Shown here: positions 14,958-41,289 of the stretch, in pieces
Layout of the letters: each line of letters starts with the position of its first letter
Numbering within the stretch: the stretch's first letter is position 1
Assembly (NCBI GenBank): GCA_031962025.1
Contig: JAVRKW010000008.1
Strand: one strand, 5' to 3'
Origin: Pseudothermotoga sp.
GTDB lineage: Bacteria > Thermotogota > Thermotogae > Thermotogales > DSM-5069
Length of the DNA stretch: 64,000 nucleotides
The notes under the pieces: model-generated
Seen by the model: only the letters and a program-made list of their open reading frames with translations
Told to the model about the DNA's origin: nothing
The model's database searches: none
Position numbers and translations under genes: made by a program

Positions 14958-16214
14958 TCAGCCGTCGATCAGAGCAACAATCAGATCATTGACATTTGTG
15001 CCCGTCGGACCAGTGATTAGAAGGTCATCACTGGCTTTCAGTGCGTTATAAGAATCGTTGTTCAAAAGCATTTTCACAGGATCAATTCCAAATGATCTAA
15101 TCTTTGCGCAGGTTGTGCCGTCTACTATTCCACCTGCCGCATCGGTTGGTCCATCAGTTCCATCGGTACCGGCGGAACAGATCACAATATTTTCAGTCCC
15201 ATCTATTTCAATGGCTGCCGAAAGCGCCAGTTCCTGGTTTCTGCCACCCTTACCAGTTCCCCTCACCTGTACAACTGTCTCGCCACCAAGTATCAGCGCG
15301 GCAGGTTTTGAAACGGGTCTGTTGTTTTGCAAAATTTCCTTTGCAACAGAAGAAATGAACCTACCAGCTTCTCTTGCTTCGCAAGAAAGCGTGGTGGTAA
15401 GGATCATCGTGTTGTATCCAAGTTGTGTGGATATCTTCTGCGCATTTTCACAGGCAATTTTGATACTGCCTATCACATAGCTCTGAACATTGGACAGATG
15501 CTTGGGTGTCTCTTCCTGCAACTGTTTGAGAATATAATCATCAACTTTTATATTGTACTTCTCGATTATGTTCATCGCCTGCTGACTTGTACTGGAGTCT
15601 GGCCAGGCAGGACCGGAGGCAATGCTATCGAGCCTGTCACCAAGAACATCTGATAGAACAAGCGAGATCACCCTGGCAGGGTAAACTCTCTGCGCAAATC
15701 TTCCACCTTTCACCGAGGAAAGGTGTTTTCTGATCGTGTTTATCTCTACAATACTCGCACCACTTTTTAAAAGCTGCTCTGTTAAATCCTGCAGTTGATG
15801 CAACGAAATATCTCCTTTTGGTTTTTCAAAGAGCGCAGATCCACCACCGGAGATTAAAAACAAAACAGTGTCATTCTGTGTCAAACCATCCACAATCTGC
15901 AAAGCTCTCTGCGTGGCAATGATTGTGTTCTCATCAGGTACAGGATGCCCGGCTTCGTAAATTTCAAGACCATCTATCTGCCCCTGACTGTGACCGTATT
16001 TGGTGATAACTATTCCCTTTGATATTTTGCTTTTAAGAATTTCTTTTGCACTTTTTGCCATTCTCCAGGCTGCTTTACCTATAGCAACAAGCACGATATT
16101 TGTTGAAATGTCCATATTTACAAGAGCTTTTTCAACCAGTTTATCCGGTAAAACAGACTCTATCGTCTCATTTACTATTTTCATGACATGCTCTCTGAGC
16201 TTCTCATTTGCCAT
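14958..16214 (-). CDS. Glycerate 2-kinase (MOFRL family)
   Basis: IGKAA, EAGHPVPD, ISGGGSALF, SDVLGD..IASGP, GGETVV..GGRNQE, GTDGTDG, TGPTGTNVND. Confidence 0.92.
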   Translation of the reverse strand: MANEKLREHVMKIVNETIESVLPDKLVEKALVNMDISTNIVLVAIGKAAWRMAKSAKEILKSKISKGIVITKYGHSQGQIDGLEIYEAGHPVPDENTIIATQRALQIVDGLTQNDTVLFLISGGGSALFEKPKGDISLHQLQDLTEQLLKSGASIVEINTIRKHLSSVKGGRFAQRVYPARVISLVLSDVLGDRLDSIASGPAWPDSSTSQQAMNIIEKYNIKVDDYILKQLQEETPKHLSNVQSYVIGSIKIACENAQKISTQLGYNTMILTTTLSCEAREAGRFISSVAKEILQNNRPVSKPAALILGGETVVQVRGTGKGGRNQELALSAAIEIDGTENIVICSAGTDGTDGPTDAAGGIVDGTTCAKIRSFGIDPVKMLLNNDSYNALKASDDLLITGPTGTNVNDLIVALIDG

Positions 16215-16246
16215 CAGATCTGATCCTCCCTTTGACCAGCTTTACC

Positions 16247-17578
16247 TTACTGGCACATGGTGGCTCCAACATCTAAATGCTGGAGAGGAAATGTGCCGGA
16301 AATTTTTGGTCGTTCTAATTCGTAACTGTACCCATCAAACCGCTGAATTACCCTGCAGTATTTGTAAGATATTCCCTGAACAATCCTTTTCCCATTTCTG
16401 CCCTTTATATCAAAATATCCACTACTTCTACATGCTACTGTTCCTTTCCATGTACCTTTGTACTTACCTCTTTTGACTACTGCCCTTACCATATCACCTG
16501 TCTGAAAACCAAAGAAAAATTTCTGTCTTGCTCTGTGCCCTATAGCAAAACCATATTTATTGACATTTGCCATTTGTCTTGTGCCTCTACCTTTTGCTGT
16601 TACATGTAAAATAGTTTTTGTCTTAAACCAAATCCTTTCAGGCGTTGATTGCCCTATGCAAATTGCGTCAAAATGATGATCTTTGGGTAAACCTAATTTA
16701 GCTCTGTTCATCTTTGTCAATACACCACTTCCACATTCTATTTGAAGTCCTGTTCTTTTTAGAACTTCGTATATCTTCCATCTTGTGGAGTTAACTAATG
16801 AACAGTCTTTTAAGGGTTCTTTGACAAGTTTCTGAATTTCAGCATACCCAAATTCTTCTGCTGTCCTATTTCCCTTTTTCTGATTGCACTCATGGCAGGC
16901 TATAACAAGGTTATCTATTCTATCTGTCCCACCTCTTGATTTTGGAATGACATGTTCTATTTCCAGGGGCACATTTGTAGCTCCACAGTACACACATCGC
17001 CTGTTGAACTTCTCTAACAGATACTCTTTTATCTCATATCCTAAAAGTGTTCCTTGTTGATATTCCACACCTGAAATTTCTGGGTTCCTTAATTTTTGTG
17101 TATCAAATTTGGCATTCTCGTACGAAATAGCATTAACAGGACACAGTTTACATAGCCTTTTTACCCACGTTTCAATGTTGTTTACTCTGCTTTTTAGTGT
17201 TGGTGGTAACCGATCTTTGTCCCTTTTCCTGTTCAAAAACCTTGGTTTTCTATACCTTGTTTTTCTACTTCTCCTGCTGTGTCGTAGATTGCGCCTTGTG
17301 TCCATCTTCTCTTTTATGTCTGTTTTGTGATGCAGTTGCATCATGAAGATTACTTCAGAATTGTTTTTCAGTATAGCGATGCCTGTGTGCTTGCTCCCGT
17401 AGTCTATTTTGAGTCTATAGTCTGGTTTGAATGTTGAGGTATCTTTTAGATCTTTGAGCCGTATAGTGAAAGGATAGATTCTGTGTACAACTGCTTTTCC
17501 TTCTTTTAGAAGTTTTCTGGCAACTGCTTCATGGCACGGTGATAAAGGTTTCTTGTTCTTGTTCAATACAAATACCAT
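16247..17578 (-). CDS. iscB: RNA-guided endonuclease IscB (443 aa from ATG at 17578)
   Basis: PLMP-like KPLSPCH, RuvC-I IDYGSKHTG, Arg-rich bridge helix, RuvC-II YENAKFD, HNH CVYC..EHVIPKSRGG..NLVIACHECNQKKGN, RuvC-III HHFDAIC; AGGAGG SD. Confidence 0.95.
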   Translation of the reverse strand: MVFVLNKNKKPLSPCHEAVARKLLKEGKAVVHRIYPFTIRLKDLKDTSTFKPDYRLKIDYGSKHTGIAILKNNSEVIFMMQLHHKTDIKEKMDTRRNLRHSRRSRKTRYRKPRFLNRKRDKDRLPPTLKSRVNNIETWVKRLCKLCPVNAISYENAKFDTQKLRNPEISGVEYQQGTLLGYEIKEYLLEKFNRRCVYCGATNVPLEIEHVIPKSRGGTDRIDNLVIACHECNQKKGNRTAEEFGYAEIQKLVKEPLKDCSLVNSTRWKIYEVLKRTGLQIECGSGVLTKMNRAKLGLPKDHHFDAICIGQSTPERIWFKTKTILHVTAKGRGTRQMANVNKYGFAIGHRARQKFFFGFQTGDMVRAVVKRGKYKGTWKGTVACRSSGYFDIKGRNGKRIVQGISYKYCRVIQRFDGYSYELERPKISGTFPLQHLDVGATMCQ

Positions 17579-17878
17579 TTTACAGAGTTTTCCTCCTTCT
17601 CCAGTAGGTTTTAAATCTACTGGGTGACGCACAGGCTGGACTACACCTGTATCTCCCATCGCCAATGTTATCCCTGTTTGTTATGTACAGACCACTGTCC
17701 CTACCACTTCAGGACTGTTTAAGCCTGTACGGCATTGTCTGGAGCTTGGGACGCACCCCAGAGTGCCATGACAGGGATAACGTAGGAACATCGTCCCCTT
17801 GTCCTTCGGGTCAGTCCCTTAGGCTGGTCAACCAGGGCTCCTTCAAGCCTCCGCCTCTATAGGCGGGTGGTAGTTGAC
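16251..17878 (-). mobile_element. Non-autonomous IS200/IS605-family IscB (OMEGA) element, no tnpA
   Basis: Left end GTCAACTACC plus hairpin CCGCCT-ATAG-AGGCGG; right subterminal hairpin 16264-16285; joining the flanks restores the host gene end TTT TTG|GTA AGG TAA. Confidence 0.85.
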
Positions 17879-17894
17879 CAAAAATCGGCTACCA
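17600..17894 (-). ncRNA. omega-RNA (HEARO-type) scaffold with 5' flank-derived guide; 3' boundary approximate
   Basis: Hallmark segments GTCAAC...GTTGACCAGCCTAAG, CTACGTTATCCCTG pairing with CAGGGATAAC, TTAAACAG, GACAGTG, AACATTGGCGATGGG directly upstream of iscB. Confidence 0.85.
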
Positions 17895-18400
17895 GCATAA
17901 GCACCCAGGATGTTGAATATTAAATCCAACATGGTGTCCTGCAACCCTCTTTGTGCATTAAGTGAGAAAAACTCATCTGCTATAAATTCTGCTATCTCCC
18001 AGATAATTCCAGCAAAATTGGTGAGCAGAAATGAAATGAAAACTGCTCTTTTTTTATCTAATTCAGCTTTCCAAAATTTCGAGTTTGTTGCCACAATGAA
18101 ATAGAAGAAAATCGATCCAAGAGCTGAGCCCACAAAATGCAAGCCCTTATCAAAAAATGGTACAGAATCATAGAAACCCAGAAACTGACCAAAAAACGAA
18201 TGAAGGAGTATATGAATTCTAAATAGTGTTTTCAAATTCTGCGGAATTTGCTGGTTCACGGTTTTTTCATAATAAAATTCAGGAATACTGCCAAAAAAGA
18301 AAACAAGATAACCCACACTCTGAACAATCTTCATTCGAAGTACTGAAAAAACTACAGGTATAAAAGAAATGGCAATGAGCGATTTATCTAAAAGCGACAT
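17843..18400 (-). CDS. Hypothetical integral membrane protein (DUF2238/VanZ-like); C-terminus supplied by the IS left end
   Basis: Hydrophobic; FDKGLHF, WEIAEF..D, DTMLDL..N..GA motifs; last residues VNYHPPIEAEA are encoded by GTCAACTACC... Confidence 0.7.
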   Translation of the reverse strand: MSLLDKSLIAISFIPVVFSVLRMKIVQSVGYLVFFFGSIPEFYYEKTVNQQIPQNLKTLFRIHILLHSFFGQFLGFYDSVPFFDKGLHFVGSALGSIFFYFIVATNSKFWKAELDKKRAVFISFLLTNFAGIIWEIAEFIADEFFSLNAQRGLQDTMLDLIFNILGAYAGSRFLVNYHPPIEAEA

Positions 18401-18468
18401 ACTTGACCTTTCTGCTGTCTCAAAGGTACCTTTCATTCCTGTTCACCCATTTTAGGATTATAACATAC

Positions 18469-40411: not shown

Positions 40412-40816
40412 GTGATACAGTTGCTTTTGCTTAAATTGGTCATTTTCACAGTATTGAGCCTGATACTGATAAAAGTTGCAAGAAAATCATTAAAAAGCCA
40501 GAAACCATTGAAATCACAGGTACAAAAAACCTTTCAGGAAAATGGCTGGAGCTGCTCAATGCACACCTACTACGGTAAAAGCTGGATAGCCATTTACAAA
40601 AGATTGCTGCAAAGGCAGGTAGTCCTTGTCAATGAGGACGTGCTCACATTCGACGATCTGAGAAAGGCTGTGATCATTTCACTACTGTCAAATGTGAATC
40701 AGATGAGAATATACTGTTATCAGATCACTCCCCATACCAGGAAAGCAATCCACATGCTCTCAAAATCTCGAAGACTTCATGGAATAAAACTCACCTCACG
40801 GGAGCTTATAAAATGA
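40412..40816 (+). CDS. Hypothetical membrane-anchored protein (3' part of the 268-aa ORF)
   Basis: GTG start, N-terminal hydrophobic helix, stop overlaps the start of the next gene (ATGA). Confidence 0.5.
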   Translation: MIQLLLLKLVIFTVLSLILIKVARKSLKSQKPLKSQVQKTFQENGWSCSMHTYYGKSWIAIYKRLLQRQVVLVNEDVLTFDDLRKAVIISLLSNVNQMRIYCYQITPHTRKAIHMLSKSRRLHGIKLTSRELIK

Positions 40817-41289
40817 CAATAATGGTAATACTGTTAGCGATTGTTCTGATCATCGCACTGTATTTGATCTTCAAAAAAAGACCACCAAAATCATCGGATC
40901 TGAGGAAAAAATGGCAGAATGGTTTCAAAGATGGATGGGCTTTTGAACAGTTTATGGCAGATCTTTTTAACAGCCTTGGATACAGAGCCATCGTGACCAA
41001 GGGATCCCATGATTTTGGAGCCGATCTGATTGTCAAAAACAAAAGGACTACTTATATTTTTCAGGTGAAATACTACAGCAACTCAATATCACCAAAGGCA
41101 CTCGAAGAAGCTCTCATGGCAGCAGCATTGTACGGAATTGATAAAATAGGAATAGTCACCAACGGTGAGATACCTCAGGCTGTAAAAAACTTCGCCGAGC
41201 AGATTTGCAGAAAAACTTTTGTCAAAAAAGTTGCCTTGATAGGTAGACCAGAGATAGAAAAGATGCTAAAAGGAGAAAAACCCATTTGA
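40813..41289 (+). CDS. Membrane-anchored Mrr-like (PD-(D/E)xK) restriction endonuclease
   Basis: N-terminal TM; FEQFMADLF..LGY, D.GADLIV, QVKYY, ..TN motifs of Mrr_cat. Confidence 0.8.
   Translation: MTIMVILLAIVLIIALYLIFKKRPPKSSDLRKKWQNGFKDGWAFEQFMADLFNSLGYRAIVTKGSHDFGADLIVKNKRTTYIFQVKYYSNSISPKALEEALMAAALYGIDKIGIVTNGEIPQAVKNFAEQICRKTFVKKVALIGRPEIEKMLKGEKPI

Follow-up and report, generated by a model that had tools for sequence, protein, structure and literature searches.

An IscB/Omega-RNA Element in a Pseudothermotoga Contig: Predicted Boundaries, Empty Site, and Target-Adjacent Motif

An omega-RNA scaffold and an intact iscB gene

The window analyzed here is a 64-kb stretch (64,000 nucleotides [nt]) of contig JAVRKW010000008.1 from a Pseudothermotoga sp. 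assembly (GCA_031962025.1). Positions 17878 to 16246 of its minus strand hold a 1,633-bp element that consists of an omega-RNA scaffold, the gene iscB, a subterminal hairpin, and a 6-nt tail. The element is located in the last codons of a gene for a DUF2238 protein, is co-oriented with it, and parts it from the overlapping downstream gene for a DUF4147 protein. We consider it very probable that this is a non-autonomous OMEGA-type insertion of the IS200/IS605 family that carries only an omega-RNA of the HEARO type and iscB.

The scaffold (17878 to 17647, minus strand) matches Rfam family HEARO (RF02033) across the full model (positions 1 to 211) with a score of 142.9 bits against a gathering score of 83 (E = 8.6e-30). 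This covariance-model search had been named as a check in an initial annotation of the locus, and the match lies above the gathering score. Folding an alignment of 14 elements gave 61 consensus pairs, 44 of which show compensatory changes, and the RNA fold of the omega-RNA had a z score of -4.24. The scaffold opens with the 5-nt transposon-end motif GTCAA (TTGAC on the complementary strand). RF02033 lacks the downstream structural elements of omega-RNA (Meers et al., PMC10055086), and the window omega-RNA probably runs ~60 nt beyond the model. Its probable 3' extension (17649 to 17585, minus strand) contains hairpins at 17649 to 17632 and 17623 to 17601, both present in the minimum-energy fold and the first also in the alignment fold, followed by the iscB ribosome-binding site, GGAGAAGGAGGA.

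The iscB coding sequence (17578 to 16247, minus strand) begins with an ATG at 17578, 70 bases downstream of the HEARO match, ends with a stop codon at 16249 to 16247, and encodes 443 amino acids (aa). Pfam domains RRXRR (4e-70) and HNH were found in the open reading frame (ORF), and the NCBIfam equivalog NF040563 (guided_IscB, "RNA-guided endonuclease IscB") matched with 439.6 bits against a cutoff of 175. The top matches among solved structures were all IscBs, including TbaIscB (1.7e-47) and OgeuIscB (1.2e-23). The catalytic residues of OgeuIscB are D61, E193, H340, and D343 in RuvC and H247 in HNH (Kato et al., PMC9640706). Aligned to the OgeuIscB structure 7xht, these correspond to D59, E154, H301, D304, and H209 of the window protein, so the split-RuvC D/E/H/D set is complete. 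The inserted HNH domain with its catalytic histidine (H209), the feature that separates IscB from IsrB, is present, as are CxxC...CxxC motifs; N223 and N232 of HNH were taken from conserved motifs. The N-terminal PLMP domain is also present, with residues 2 to 45 aligning to the PLMP domains of OgeuIscB, TbaIscB, and HfmIscB and the motif itself reading PLSP (residues 11 to 14), and a TAM-interacting region (TAM, target-adjacent motif) lies at the C terminus. The initial annotation had read the locus as a complete IscB/omega-RNA element with an intact frame and all catalytic residues, and the HEARO score, the NF040563 score, and the mapping onto OgeuIscB agree with this.

The ratio of nonsynonymous to synonymous substitution rates (dN/dS) for iscB was 0.093 against the copy in Anaerocellum danielii and 0.089 against a copy of the metagenomic P0018 group. 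These ratios indicate purifying selection on iscB, and together with the covariation in the omega-RNA they show that selection keeps both the gene and the RNA.

In a public gene call for this protein (P0016, 470 aa), the start is placed at an ATG that lies within the omega-RNA (region 17579 to 17659, minus strand). The 443-aa start, with its GGAGG ribosome-binding site, agrees with an annotated homolog of 87% identity, and the extra 27 codons of P0016 are probably an annotation artifact. Exact-sequence look-ups of the 443-, 470-, and 472-aa versions of the IscB protein returned zero records.

Element ends, empty site, and target-adjacent motif

Single-stranded DNA folds of both element ends contained hairpins (z = -2.6 to -4.7), as the initial annotation had described. 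The ends thus have the form found in IS200/IS605 elements, subterminal imperfect hairpins without terminal inverted repeats, and the insertion also follows the pattern of that family, with a conserved 4- to 5-nt motif alongside and no target-site duplication, as seen in the relatives and upon in silico excision. The iscB-distal hairpin (16252 to 16297; GGCACAT...CTCCAGCAT-TTAG-ATGTTGGAG...ATGTGCC; z = -3.3 and -2.6 in the DNA folds) is the TnpA "left end" if read on the plus strand. Its stem changes in a compensatory manner among relatives (CTCCAGC/GCTGGAG versus CTCCAAC/GTTGGAG).

DNA similarity to the Anaerocellum copy (85.5%) covers 17881 to 16246, and similarity to the P0018-group and Fervidicola copies (~79.5%) covers 17878 to 16248. 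The window element and 17 of 17 relatives start with GTCAAC after unrelated flanks. Because this invariant motif opens all 17 relatives, the left end falls exactly at G17878, and the guide is the host DUF2238 coding sequence directly 5' of the scaffold (17894 to 17879, minus strand), TGGTAGCCGATTTTTG, as first proposed. A 2-nt boundary ambiguity had been suspected from the occurrence of GT at both junctions; it disappears with the assignment of the left GT to the invariant GTCAAC. GT stands at both junctions because the transposon-end motif GTCAA resembles GTAAA, the candidate TAM described below.

The guide is 16 nt long. Guides of ~16 nt are known for IscB omega-RNAs (PMC9640706) and are encoded outside the transposon end (PMC10055086). 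The omega-RNA carries the guide at its 5' end and lies directly upstream of iscB in the same orientation, an arrangement that is repeated in the 17 relatives. Within the window, the guide matches perfectly only at its own site. A match with 2 mismatches inside iscB (17204 to 17219, plus strand; TGGTAACCGATCTTTG) is followed by TCCCTT, which is not a TAM, and was treated as chance; ~0.5 guide matches with 3 or fewer mismatches are expected by chance in the window.

At the right end, independent insertions of one subfamily are identical for a stretch past the hairpin foot ATGTGCC and then diverge. Insertions of the P0018 group at four sites share the tail AGTAGGCGGTGAA, with common sequence through ...GGCGGTGAA and divergence after it. 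Shared tails were likewise found in Methanosarcina (...TTTATCGTGAA; CGTGAA), at four sites in Methanohalobium (...TCTCGTGAA or ...TCTCGTGAT; CGTGAA or CGTGAT), and at three sites in Acidaminobacter (...[C/G]ATGAA). Single copies show the same pattern in Anaerocellum (...GAGGGTGAA, then A), Fervidobacterium (...GGAGGTGAA, then A), and Fervidicola (...GCGCGATAAA, then C). The shared stretch in the relatives' independent insertions ends with [G/A]T[G/A]A[A/T] (GTGAA, ATGAA, or GTGAT). The right end in the window reads AGTAAGGTAAA, then GCTGG, and aligns as ...AGTAAG/GTAAA. The family comparison, together with restoration of the host frame, points to G16246 as the right element end and to 16246/16245 as the boundary. 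A junction at 16249/16248, which would also be in frame, was ruled out, as the shared sequence of the relatives extends well past the equivalent point. In two Clostridia copies (L006 and L008), the shared right-end sequence continues 3 nt beyond GTGAT (...TTTGTGATTTG) before divergence, which reflects either a different subfamily TAM or a chance agreement of two flanks. A scan of genome contigs with the right-end 17-mer found 27 stretches, namely, the known Fervidicola copy and 26 without a known IscB link that were presumed, without inspection, to be chance matches; the same scan of viral contigs gave zero matches.

From homology with the insertion motifs of the relatives and with GstIscB, we infer that the TAM in the window is GTAAA (16245 to 16241, minus strand), the 5 nt with which the host sequence resumes 3' of the element. 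It reads TTTAC on the plus strand, which resembles the IS608 target TTAC. The TAM had been sought in the flank 3' of the insertion, in agreement with the published rule (PMC10055086), and GstIscB has the TAM TTCAT (ATGAA on the IscB strand), equal to the motif beside its native element (Meers et al., PMC10055086). The motif first read there was GTAA(G). Its first four bases, GTAA, hold, while its location was 5 nt off and the fifth base of the TAM would be A; the earlier core survives only because the element closes with the five bases GTAAG, a near repeat of GTAAA. We could not establish an IS608-style rule by which the TAM would pair with the bases that precede the hairpin foot (TACT or TAAT); the four subfamilies showed no covariation, and such a rule was not used.

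An uninterrupted form of the host locus was found in a Pseudothermotoga metagenome-assembled genome (MAG; loci L131 and L132), reached via the DUF2238 homolog P0002. Homologs of the DUF4147 protein in the closest species-representative genomes (L041, L042, and L102) had no adjacent DUF2238 gene and could not serve as an empty site. In the MAG, DUF2238 ends with ...GRLLIKTQRGLIHGK and a stop (...IKTQRGLIHGK), and this stop overlaps the DUF4147 ATG by 11 nt. When the window was joined at 17879/16245, DUF2238 ended with ...GSRFLVKLVKGRIRSDGK and a stop (...DGK) with the identical 11-nt overlap, GATGGCAAATGA in the excised window against CATGGTAAGTAA in the MAG ortholog. In silico excision at this joint restored the host gene with zero duplicated bases. 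By the same comparison, the displaced original 3' end of DUF2238 (VKLVKGRIRSDGK and a stop) lies at 16245 to 16204 (minus strand), its stop overlapping the DUF4147/MOFRL ATG (16214) by 11 nt. The empty site would be ...GATTTTTG/GTAAAGCTGG, i.e., ...TGGTAGCCGATTTTTG/GTAAAGCTGGTC (...TTTTTG/GTAAAGCTGG), and the joint expected across 17879/16245 would read ...GATTTTTGGTAAAGCTGG / ...TTTTTGGTAAAGCTGG / ...CCGATTTTTGGTAAAGCTGGTC.

The initial annotation had set the right boundary at 16251/16250, with an empty site of ...TTTTTG/GTAAGGTAA. If the element did end at 16251, the empty site would be ...TGGTAGCCGATTTTTG/GTAAGGTAA, the joint would be ...TTTTTGGTAAGGTAAAGC, the TAM would be GTAAG, and the iscB stop codon would come from the flank. 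GTAAG does stand directly after the hairpin foot, a similar K-T-A-R-G occurs at that position in relatives (GTAGG, GTAGC, and TTAAG), and the host gene would gain an immediate stop (...SRFLVR). However, the four P0018-group insertions share 9 nt more (GCGGTGAA), so the element cannot stop there, and the iscB stop codon accounts for the conserved K-T-A-R-G. A junction at 16250 also shifts the host frame: the resulting ...SRFLVR end disagrees with the ...HGK end of the ortholog, the 11-nt overlap with DUF4147 is lost, and 13 of 13 DUF2238 homologs have a tail of at least 10 residues past the SRFL position. We regard an end at 16251 as improbable and retain 16246/16245, which the family comparison and the syntenic locus both favor.

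Proposed mechanism, mobility, and host setting

In the published model, the transposon right end gives rise to the IscB scaffold, the omega-RNA has to be transcribed from a co-oriented upstream gene because its guide falls outside the element, and IscB cuts the scarless joint left by TnpA excision, forcing restoration of the element by recombination (PMC10055086). GstIscB cuts its own donor joint, and single-base TAM changes abolish its cleavage (PMC10055086). Each anatomical feature of the window element is compatible with this model, under which omega-RNA expression, processing, and cleavage are predicted. A Y1 TnpA supplied in trans would have inserted the element, in single-stranded form, 3' of the plus-strand motif TTTAC. 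Read-through from DUF2238 would then give an omega-RNA with TGGTAGCCGATTTTTG as its 5' 16 nt and guide; the only promoter-like site found is a weak consensus match at 18235 to 18207, within DUF2238. The IscB-omega-RNA complex would recognize and cut the joint that lacks the element, in which GTAAA comes directly after TGGTAGCCGATTTTTG, and the element would be regained by recombination with an occupied copy. Such a homing role, in which the insertion is defended against empty alleles, had been suggested for this locus and is the published model rather than a new idea.

At the occupied site the guide match is followed by GTCAA, which differs from GTAAA at position 3, and this pyrimidine at TAM position 3 would spare the element. 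OgeuIscB requires purines at TAM positions 3 and 4, where pyrimidines are sterically excluded (PMC9640706), and every family TAM in our comparison has purines at positions 3 and 4. The purine rule is thus a plausible reason for an uncut occupied locus. Thermostability of the window IscB, also raised initially, is plausible. As a tentative proposal, possible but short of probable, the element may encode a thermostable 443-aa nuclease with the five-base TAM GTAAA (G/A-T-R-A-A) that tells the occupied site (GTCAA) from the empty site (GTAAA) by one base, a pyrimidine or a purine at TAM position 3. If this is true, it would offer a clean natural system in which to study how an OMEGA nuclease distinguishes self from non-self and, for work in Thermotogae and Caldicellulosiruptor, a compact tool for genome editing at high temperature.

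The 1,633 bp of the element hold only the omega-RNA and iscB, with no HUH Y1 transposase gene (tnpA) inside, and 0 of the 10 ORFs of 115 to 158 aa in the window matched Y1_Tnp in a Pfam scan, in line with the earlier report that tnpA is absent. Because no TnpA was found within the element or among these ORFs, the element is classed as non-autonomous. A regular-expression screen for HUH/Y1 motifs across the fetched loci and the window also gave no match, but it is too strict to count as evidence and was replaced by the Pfam scan. A repeat search of the window found no second copy or fragment of the element. Only ~1.5% of iscB genes have tnpA nearby (Meers et al., PMC10055086), and in this respect the window element resembles ~98% of iscB loci.

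Several of these observations weigh against an OMEGA insertion with the ends and function described above. With no tnpA in the 64-kb window and a single copy seen, current mobility, and with it a donor joint to cut, is hypothetical. The tail from hairpin to TAM is 6 nt in the window against 8 to 12 nt in relatives, and given this short tail, the window's element end could be slightly eroded. GTAAA is one base off the GTGAA of the closest relatives. No conspecific genome or empty allele was found in the collections searched, and the junction rests on a 70%-identical ortholog and the family comparison. The frame test taken alone permits 16245 plus or minus 3n; only 16245 remains because this test is combined with the family comparison.

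The same observations could describe a stranded passenger, structurally intact but immobile here for want of a TnpA in trans and with a shortened end, which has no joint to cut and arrived too recently to have decayed. The lack of a Y1 transposase in the ORF scan, the single copy in the 64-kb window, and the tail shorter than that of the relatives all agree with this, as does the fact that most iscB loci have no tnpA, and the closest relatives lie in Bacillota thermophiles, which suggests horizontal arrival. Against it, there are zero lesions in the ORF, catalytic residues, omega-RNA, or hairpins; a dN/dS of 0.09 indicates long-term selection, though averaged over the whole divergence from the relatives; and tnpA could lie in the genome beyond the window. 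We judge a stranded passenger to be unlikely, although it is the alternative that we take most seriously. An IscB domesticated to serve the host, in RNA-guided regulation or defense, for example, rather than the transposon would also fit a single-copy locus without tnpA. However, the nuclease residues are intact, unlike those of known nuclease-dead domesticated relatives, and the transposon ends, the transposon-end motif, and the TAM-adjacent insertion are all preserved. The guide, moreover, is merely the flank of the insertion site, the host operon junction is disrupted and not integrated into host regulation, and iscB is absent at the syntenic site of the Pseudothermotoga MAG. Domestication is very hard to credit on these grounds, and the non-autonomous OMEGA insertion remains our preferred reading.

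The interrupted host gene (17843 to 18436) encodes a DUF2238 (PF09997) membrane protein whose nearest homolog, from a Pseudothermotoga MAG, is 70% identical. The DUF4147/MOFRL gene on the other side (14958 to 16214) encodes a protein with 71% identity to one from Pseudothermotoga sp. and 67 to 68% identity to proteins from Thermotogaceae and Fervidobacterium MAGs. The order DctP-DUF2238-DUF4147/MOFRL is common to the window and the uninterrupted MAG locus. The flanking genes are by their sequences Thermotogae-like, and the Thermotogae host named in the initial annotation was borne out by these 70 to 71% identities and the conserved order. The window's own proteins form single-member clusters in the collections. 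The fraction of residues IVYWREL, which is reportedly related to optimal growth temperature by the Zeldovich composition formula, was 0.417; this proteome-composition formula gives an optimum of ~56°C for the host, which fits a moderate thermophile.

The 5' part of DUF2238 (18436 to 17879, minus strand) now ends in a tail translated from the omega-RNA sequence; its stop codon is at 17845 to 17843. The insertion swapped the last 13 residues of DUF2238 for this 11-residue tail, VNYHPPIEAEA (17878 to 17843), and removed the 11-nt stop/start overlap with DUF4147/MOFRL, which is glycerate-kinase-like. A probable translational coupling between DUF2238 and DUF4147 was lost together with the overlap. 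Elsewhere in the window, a 158-aa ORF (40813 to 41289, plus strand) combines a predicted membrane segment at its N terminus with a restriction-endonuclease domain, Mrr_cat (3.7e-17), and an ordinary Rfam ribosomal protein L10 leader (61477 to 61344, minus strand; 47.1 bits against a gathering score of 44) lies upstream of rplJ-rplL-rpoB-rpoC.

Relatives and known systems

IscB relatives number at least 7,974 proteins at E ≤ 1e-30, and NCBI names such proteins automatically. The nearest is the IscB of Anaerocellum (Caldicellulosiruptor) danielii (P0017; L121 to L124), which is also 443 aa long, is 87% identical in amino acids, and is annotated as "RNA-guided endonuclease IscB." Its element has 85.5% DNA identity over the whole length, including the omega-RNA and the end hairpin, and the same architecture with no tnpA nearby. 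It differs in its Bacillota host, in its insertion site and so in its guide, in its tail (12 nt versus 6 nt in the window), and in its flanking motif (GTGAA versus GTAAA). In one locus (L121, 5027 to 5197), a SpoIIM gene and a 172-aa ORF flank the Anaerocellum element, and two tRNA genes follow ~700 bp downstream of it. Other near relatives are the metagenomic P0018 group, with several independent insertions, and Fervidicola ferrireducens. IscBs of Bacillaceae thermophiles related to the GstIscB host are 65 to 68% identical to the window protein. IscB was known earlier in the Thermotogota from Fervidobacterium islandicum, whose protein is 56% identical.

Two copies (L125 and L126) of a 78%-identical IscB element lie 8.7 kb apart on one 87-kb ENA contig (also L161), which has a coverage of ~1675 and also encodes ParB-methyltransferase, Bro-N/ANT, and PLD-like proteins. 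This contig is probably a phage or plasmid and would be a plausible vehicle for IscB elements between phyla. With copies in Anaerocellum, Fervidicola, and the phage- or plasmid-like contig at up to 85% DNA identity, the window element would be one more documented case of transfer between Bacillota and Thermotogota.

For basic knowledge the element carries little weight, since IscB/omega-RNA elements exist in thousands, are known in the Thermotogota, and have been characterized from a thermophile. Its modest value is that a single locus reveals the guide, the TAM, the transposon-end motif, both boundaries, and the host sequence as it was before the insertion, and it is a possible source of a compact nuclease for the genetics of thermophilic anaerobes. 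No paper devoted to a thermostable IscB was found in the literature beyond the GstIscB work.

That system, GstIscB/ISGst5 of Geobacillus stearothermophilus (PMC10055086), is the experimentally shown model of donor-joint cleavage. Like the window element, it is an IS605-type insertion of a thermophile with iscB and omega-RNA, a guide outside the right end, and a 5-nt TAM abutting the other end; the two were compared by description. They differ in the TAM, TTCAT (ATGAA) in GstIscB versus the inferred TTTAC (GTAAA) in the window, and in that a cognate TnpA is known for GstIscB and none for the window element. OgeuIscB (PDB 7xht, 7utn, and 8csz) has the same order of PLMP, RuvC-I, bridge helix, RuvC-II, HNH, RuvC-III, WED, and TI, the same catalytic residues, and a HEARO-type omega-RNA, whereas it is distant (E = 1.2e-23), is 496 rather than 443 aa long, recognizes the TAM NNRR, and originates from a mesophilic gut metagenome. 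TnpB/omega-RNA elements (ISDra2 and IS608) belong to the same superfamily and share the principle that the TAM is identical to the insertion motif and that the flank provides the guide. In contrast, TnpB has RuvC only, its TAM precedes the target on the 5' side, and its omega-RNA, located 3' of the gene, is transcribed from inside the element. The window RNA matches the full RF02033 model with covarying helices and no notable difference. The element is an ordinary member of the known IscB family, already annotated and tested in other thermophiles; what is new here is the corrected right boundary, the empty site, and the TAM that we propose from them.

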